DNA from: Escherichia coli
Lineage (GTDB): Bacteria > Pseudomonadota > Gammaproteobacteria > Enterobacterales > Enterobacteriaceae
Length of the DNA: 64,000 nt
Assembly: GCF_003334405.1 (NCBI RefSeq)
Contig: NZ_QOWM01000016.1
Direction: 5' to 3' (one strand)
This document shows positions 38,953 through 39,099 of this stretch, one piece after another (within the stretch, counting starts at the first letter, position 1; the number at the start of each line of letters is the position of its first letter). The translations under genes and the position numbers were made by a program. Below the pieces are notes generated by a model, which saw only the letters and a program-made list of their open reading frames with translations, was not told the origin of the DNA and did no database searches.

Positions 38953-39099
38953 TTAAACAGAGCACAAAATGCTGCCTCGAAATGAGGGCGGGAAAATAAG
39001 GTTATCAGCCTTGTTTTCTCCCTCATTACTTGAAGGATATGAAGCTAAAACCCTTTTTTATAAAGCATTTGTCCGAATTCGGACATAATCAAAAAAGCT

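Follow-up and report, generated by a model that had tools for sequence, protein, structure and literature searches.

A perfect 16-bp palindrome upstream of Escherichia coli katG as a lineage-restricted inverted repeat and possible core of a weak YgaV site

Does a perfect palindrome in the intergenic DNA upstream of katG mark the binding site of a dimeric regulator? A first-pass annotation of a 64-kb window of E. coli DNA (64,000 nucleotides, the whole stretch that was analysed) had drawn attention to such a palindrome, TGTCCGAATTCGGACA, which starts 155–170 bp before the katG ATG (39240), farther from the gene than the OxyR site, and the coordinates confirmed this placement. The palindrome was upstream of the best match to the OxyR consensus (39144–39180) and, relative to the katG transcription start site estimated below, it occupied positions ~−146 to −131, with its centre (39077.5) at ~−138. 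It contained an EcoRI site, could be parsed as TGTC-N8-GACA, and was the sole perfect dyad of at least 14 bp within the metF–katG intergenic region. The answer to which we were led, at a probability of about 45%, is that TGTCCGAATTCGGACA is a young, lineage-restricted inverted repeat and most likely the core of a weak YgaV site in K-12-type strains. A rival of nearly equal weight is that the palindrome arose by chance in neutral spacer and has no sequence-specific function; a single central A/T difference would have turned an imperfect repeat into a perfect one in K-12-like lineages, and YgaV would protect this stretch in vitro only because it binds AT-rich DNA incidentally and with low affinity.

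The arrangement of the locus is given in Table 1. The window is DNA of E. coli K-12: its metF–katG intergenic region, 328 bp in length, was 100% identical to that of strain MC4100. The katG ATG was placed at genome coordinate 4,133,835, which puts the palindrome at 4,133,665–4,133,680 of NC_000913.3, and the katG start site of EcoCyc, 4,133,811, agreed with the position estimated here (39216); a search of the literature by genome coordinates for the katG start site gave no match. The conserved control region of katG, made up of the OxyR site, the core promoter and the adjoining sequence 5' of both, began ~20 bp 3' of the palindrome and excluded it, and the palindrome overlapped no core promoter element, being ~100 bp upstream of the −35 region. 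The 8-mer TTTATAAA occurred twice, at 38905–38912 and 39057–39064, which could hint at an old insertion. On the other side of metF, the minus strand at 37811–37945 carried a RefSeq hypothetical protein of 44 aa in the metL–metF intergenic region, which is the expected place of the MetJ/MetR-controlled metF promoter.

Table 1. Features of the metF–katG locus, in coordinates of the window (a point in the strand column denotes a feature without assigned strand).
Feature	Position	Strand	Basis
metF CDS, upstream neighbour	38021–38911	+	annotation and reading frames
Escherichia-only, AT-rich, fast-evolving intergenic segment holding the palindrome (196 bp, 36% GC)	38912–39107	.	comparison with other genera
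Inferred YgaV footprint, TATAAAGCATTTGTCCGAATTCGGACATAATCAAAAAAGCTTAAT (29% GC)	39059–39103	.	published −157 to −113, anchored via the OxyR motif
Perfect 16-bp palindrome, TGTCCGAATTCGGACA	39070–39085	.	sequence and coordinates read directly
Near-invariant katG promoter block (upstream element, OxyR site, core promoter, 5' UTR)	39108–39239	+	conservation
OxyR motif of katG, best match to ATAGnTnnnAnCTAT-N7-ATAGnTnnnAnCTAT (14/20 specified bases)	39144–39180	+	
Inferred katG transcription start site (5' UTR ~24 nt)	39216	+	OxyR footprint and motif centre
katG CDS, catalase/peroxidase HPI	39240–41420	+	annotation and reading frames

The interest of the palindrome had rested partly on the view that perfect palindromes of this length are uncommon by chance, and this view was not borne out. 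Mononucleotide shuffles, together with first- and third-order Markov simulations of the 64-kb window, served as the chance model and gave a mean of 1.05–1.4 perfect palindromes of 16 bp and 3.9–5.4 of 14 bp; the window itself contained one (TGTCCGAATTCGGACA) and four, respectively, and 69–73% of the simulated windows contained at least one of 16 bp. Since one palindrome per 64 kb is what chance is expected to produce, TGTCCGAATTCGGACA is not statistically unusual; this count favours a chance origin, and a perfect 16-bp palindrome, occurring about once per 64 kb, is by itself no evidence of function. Approximately 12% of the K-12 genome is non-coding, and when the calculation was limited to that fraction of AT-rich DNA the expectation dropped to ~0.15–0.2. 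The occurrence of the palindrome in AT-rich non-coding DNA is a mild location effect and is not significant. When the exact 16-mer was sought in the literature, the sole match was an unrelated cancer paper.

Variation within the species was followed in 5426 complete E. coli genomes, using a 30-mer centred on the palindrome as the query. The 30-mer was perfect in 3718 genomes, carried one mismatch in 487, two in 1023 and three or more in 33, and was too diverged to be found in 165. In all four genomes sampled from the one-mismatch class, the change fell in the flank, at 39068, and left the palindrome intact; the palindrome was broken in at least ~1,200 genomes (~22% of the 5426), by asymmetric variants. 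The sampled alleles were TGTCCTAAATCGGACA (ST131), TATCCTAAATCGGACA, TGTCCGAAATCAGACA, CTGCCGAAATCAGACA (ATCC 25922) and TGTCCGAAATCGGACA, and none of them showed compensatory changes at symmetric positions. Six of the 16 palindrome columns were variable among E. coli, the same density as in the flanking spacer (32–36%), compared to 0 of 132 columns in the promoter block in the same set of sequences. That block was at least 99% identical in 5421 of the 5426 genomes, whereas the 196-bp segment reached this identity in just 3034, and the OxyR motif was invariant across 16 Escherichia variants. The palindrome is therefore located just outside the constrained katG control region and is evolving at the rate of the surrounding unconstrained spacer. 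Both the spacer-like density of variable columns and the asymmetry of every variant, that of E. albertii (TGTCCGTATTCGGATA) included, speak for a chance palindrome.

A separate observation concerns another palindrome, GATCAATTTGATC (13 bp, 39107–39119), which has two Dam GATC sites and lies 5' of the OxyR footprint, where the invariant katG block begins. Positions 39108–39119 showed zero variation across the 16 aligned Escherichia variants and were inside the block that was near-identical across the E. coli genomes. Citrobacter retained GATCAATTTGATC in part, as ATCATTTTGATC, and a third GATC (39147–39150) fell within the OxyR motif. GATCAATTTGATC is a better candidate than TGTCCGAATTCGGACA for a conserved regulatory element.

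Comparison of katG loci from 80 species extended the result beyond E. coli. In Citrobacter (seven genomes), Pseudocitrobacter, Lelliottia, Leclercia, Silvania, Enterobacter and Pseudescherichia, metF was followed by a canonical terminator with a GC stem and a T-run, and this terminator abutted a block homologous to K-12 from 39108 onward (ATCAnTTTGATCTACATCTCT..., followed by the OxyR site and core promoter), such that the metF–katG gap was ~145–225 bp in these genera compared to 328 bp in E. coli. The metF terminator of other Enterobacteriaceae had the form GCCCTCn-loop-nGAGGGC, then a T-run; a consensus scan between metF and katG in E. coli found no canonical terminator. The segment at 38912–39107 was present only in Escherichia, and other genera lacked the whole of it while retaining the OxyR promoter, which again favours a chance origin of the palindrome within it. 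Related sequence was found at the homologous place in only 2 of the 80 loci, the GTDB E. coli representative (TGTCCGAAATCGGACA) and E. albertii (TGTCCGTATTCGGATA), and both were imperfect. We also considered whether the 196-bp segment was derived from a repeat or mobile element of the REP/ERIC type, and rejected this because the segment was single-copy in all 5426 E. coli genomes by sensitive blastn. Scrambled in at least ~22% of E. coli and absent from every non-Escherichia relative with a retained katG/OxyR promoter, the palindrome lacked the conservation in close relatives on which the first-pass annotation had made its regulator site depend.

A regulator has, on the other hand, been placed in this region by published experiments. 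YgaV is the E. coli homologue of SqrR/BigR, an ArsR-family sulfide-responsive repressor, and the purified protein shifted a probe spanning the whole metF–katG intergenic region (PMC9774250, Antioxidants 2022); the primers for this 330-bp probe span 38909–39242 here. In DNase I experiments, YgaV protected only a stretch of ~45 bp, −157 to −113 as counted from the katG start site, and the OxyR footprint on katG was given as −76 to −32, citing Tartaglia 1989 (PMC9774250). To place these positions on the window, the centre of the OxyR motif (39162) was set to −54, which puts the start site at ~39216, to within ~±10 bp. The YgaV footprint would then cover ~39059–39103, with the centre of the palindrome at most 4 bp from the centre of the footprint, and the palindrome would remain inside it even with an error of ±10 bp.

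The expectation that the palindrome marks a dimeric-regulator site had some support in one respect, in that the palindrome maps inside the YgaV footprint, and failed in another, in that it is neither conserved nor without an assigned factor. The first-pass annotation had itself counted an overlap with an already mapped footprint against its proposal, and by the mapping above such an overlap was found (PMC9774250). Since both of these adverse outcomes were observed, TGTCCGAATTCGGACA is not a conserved regulator site, nor one that still lacks a factor. Its surroundings are already known from the literature as a weak YgaV-bound region, and the palindrome itself is not pointed out there; the word "palindrome" does not occur in PMC9774250. 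What YgaV recognises at katG is not defined in that paper; the palindrome is the obvious candidate, and later papers gave no defined YgaV or BigR motif.

The same study provides the quantities by which a YgaV site at katG has to be judged. The amount of YgaV required for katG was ~20 times that for the ygaV promoter, and the authors found no sequence like ATTC-N8-GAAT in the protected katG area (PMC9774250). The katG read count rose 1.8-fold, from 4862 in the wild type to 8893 when ygaV was mutated, and a total of ~150 genes were altered in the mutant (PMC9774250). The authors concluded that YgaV cannot work at katG by the mechanism it uses at the ygaV promoter, and proposed that it may act through OxyR (PMC9774250). 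The ~20-fold weaker binding than at its own promoter favours a chance palindrome bound incidentally; against this, the footprint was discrete within a 330-bp probe and apparently centred on the palindrome.

The reading of TGTCCGAATTCGGACA as the core of a weak YgaV site draws on its place in the footprint, on its being the sole perfect dyad of at least 14 bp in the intergenic region, and on the rise of katG in the ygaV mutant. The symmetry of the palindrome would suit a winged-helix protein that binds as a dimer, with a 4-8-4 spacing identical to that of ATTC-N8-GAAT, and it shares four of the eight specified bases with that consensus (TC and GA); the ygaV operator, which is AT-rich, does not clearly resemble it. 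Proteins of the ArsR family generally bind inverted repeats as dimers, a property that the YgaV paper does not state for YgaV itself. A YgaV dimer would be predicted to read the outer tetrads of the palindrome, TGTC and GACA, at the spacing of the SqrR consensus, and a match confined to TC/GA would fit the ~20-fold lower affinity. Bound ~140 bp 5' of the start site and ~55 bp 5' of the OxyR footprint, YgaV could dampen katG only modestly (1.8-fold), perhaps, to speculate, through OxyR or through local DNA architecture. Such a YgaV-bound site would be outside the conserved control logic of katG and at most a minor, lineage-specific regulatory site.

Several points weigh against this assignment to YgaV. 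The overlap with the footprint depends on the start site as anchored here, and chance alone is expected to yield a palindrome of this length. The footprint is 29% GC, so YgaV may read the AT-rich flanks instead of the palindrome, and the 1.8-fold change in katG could be indirect, being one among ~150 altered genes. Moreover, ygaV was present in 5418 of the 5426 genomes, and the dyad was broken without compensation in at least ~1,200 and absent outside Escherichia. The footprinted ygaV operator served as a control for the last argument. Per identity band, the operator was found in 3804/379/1212/19 genomes, compared to 3718/487/1023/33 for the palindrome. Because the operator varies about as much as the palindrome, population variation alone cannot exclude a YgaV site, and the similar variation, being compatible with a real site, also counts against the chance origin. 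In the ygaV operator, the left putative half-site ATTT was changed to ACAC in AR_0104, and GAGT was changed to GAAT in WP5-S17-ESBL-11. This variation suggests either loose sequence requirements of YgaV or differences between lineages in autoregulation.

A third explanation, which we regard as improbable, is that the palindrome acts as a hairpin in RNA or DNA, either as an intrinsic terminator on the minus strand or as a protective stem-loop at the 3' end of the metF transcript on the plus strand. A consensus scan did score it as terminator-like on the minus strand, where a 6-bp stem, four of whose pairs are GC, closes a 4-nt loop and is followed by AATGCTTTAT as tail, the RNA fold of the palindrome was −8.6 kcal/mol, and its location downstream of metF is suitable. 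However, there was no minus-strand gene or promoter-like site between katG and the palindrome for such a terminator to serve, and on the plus strand the stem was followed by the A-rich TAATCAAAAAAGC with no U-run. Natural variants weakened the stem to −6.3 to −1.3 kcal/mol without compensation, with values of −2.5, −1.8 and −1.3 kcal/mol in three natural E. coli alleles as opposed to −8.6 kcal/mol in K-12. In PMC7815308, a search under metF and katG of the tables listing 3' ends and start sites gave no entry in this intergenic region. An Rfam scan of 38700–39400 at permissive E-values returned only sub-threshold chance matches to eukaryotic miRNA and snoRNA models, and no known RNA family.

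Other structures were seen in the metF 3' region. Positions 38983–39025 form a long, imperfect stem-loop, AATGAGGGCGGGAAAATAAGG...CCTTGTTTTCTCCCTCATT; the 206-nt region containing it had a fold z-score of −4.7, and, in contrast to the stem of the palindrome, this stem kept −19 to −25 kcal/mol in all sampled E. coli alleles despite 13 variable columns. The metF 3' end thus probably carries a genuine RNA structure here, e.g. a terminator or protective hairpin. Just past the metF stop were two short palindromes, TGTGAAAATCACA (38925–38937) and GTGATCAC (38940–38947), followed by AAATTTT. These resemble CRP half-sites at the wrong spacing; alternatively, TTGTGA...TCACAA could pair as the stem of a weak terminator, with ATTTT after it.

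Recognition of the palindrome by DeoR or another repressor of the DeoR family, proposed from its likeness to the deo operator TGTTAGAA-TTCTAACA, is in our estimation less probable still. Twelve of 16 positions are common with the published DeoR palindrome (PMC5326754), and compared with the operator variants TGTTAGAA-T(T/A)CTAACA the agreement was 12/16 and 11/16 positions. Against this, a match of at least 12/16 to a fixed 16-mer is expected ~2.4 times per 64 kb (uniform binomial) and one was found, the four mismatches were symmetric (operator positions 4–5 and 12–13), and the window held no second site of at least 12/16 for cooperative looping. Nor does katG, with metF as its neighbour, have a functional link to nucleoside catabolism, and a literature search found no report of DeoR at katG. 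A site for the CRP/FNR family (TGTGA-N6-TCACA) can be virtually dismissed: the palindrome has the same 16-bp 5-6-5 layout and matches in the outer TGT/ACA (6/10), but the GA and TC of the half-sites, which are major recognition determinants of CRP, are replaced by CC and GG, and the sequence of the palindrome is not conserved.

Two other regulators of this promoter were compared with the palindrome by position. A scan for OxyR sites (four ATAG-type elements over 37 bp, beside the −35 region) gave five best windows, with 10–14 of 20 matches, and none of these five overlapped the palindrome. For LsrR, work on a mastitis strain of E. coli reported a gel shift of katG promoter DNA and proposed AACAAT as the bound box, whose mutation raised reporter expression only before 4 h (PMC8487509). 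LsrR was rejected as a ligand of the palindrome, as the proposed box lies elsewhere, at 39136–39141 in the invariant block.

For the biology of katG, these results are of little consequence, as its conserved control region does not include the palindrome. They do bear on YgaV, for which the natural E. coli alleles are a ready graded series of broken palindromes. It is possible, although we consider it unlikely, that TGTC-N8-GACA, be it ancestral or the product of a single central A/T change, is what YgaV truly recognises at katG, in which case phylogroups with broken alleles (ST131, ATCC 25922) would differ from K-12 in the coupling of sulfide/persulfide to catalase; if true, this would be a very recent turnover of a regulatory site within one species.

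Set beside known systems, the palindrome resembles each of several in part. Like the deo operator of DeoR, it is a perfect 16-bp palindrome with outer TGT/ACA and a central GAATTC, but it is a single isolated site in an unrelated gene context and its likeness is at chance level. With an intrinsic (Rho-independent) terminator it shares a GC-rich 6-bp stem, a 4-nt loop and a partly T-rich minus-strand tail, but it has no known minus-strand transcript to end and no U-run on the metF/katG strand, and its stem is not maintained. The OxyR site of katG is in the same promoter region, and the YgaV authors propose that YgaV may act through OxyR, but the OxyR motif lies ~60 bp farther downstream, does not vary in E. 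coli and, unlike the palindrome, is conserved in other genera as well. With operators of the SqrR/BigR/YgaV type (deduced consensus ATTC-N8-GAAT), the palindrome shares the form of a 16-bp 4-8-4 dyad, in the middle of a YgaV footprint. It differs from them in agreeing at only 4/8 bases, in its ~20-fold lower affinity and in being unconserved where ygaV is carried; and whereas the site at the ygaV promoter lies over the −35 and −10 elements, the palindrome at katG is at ~−140.
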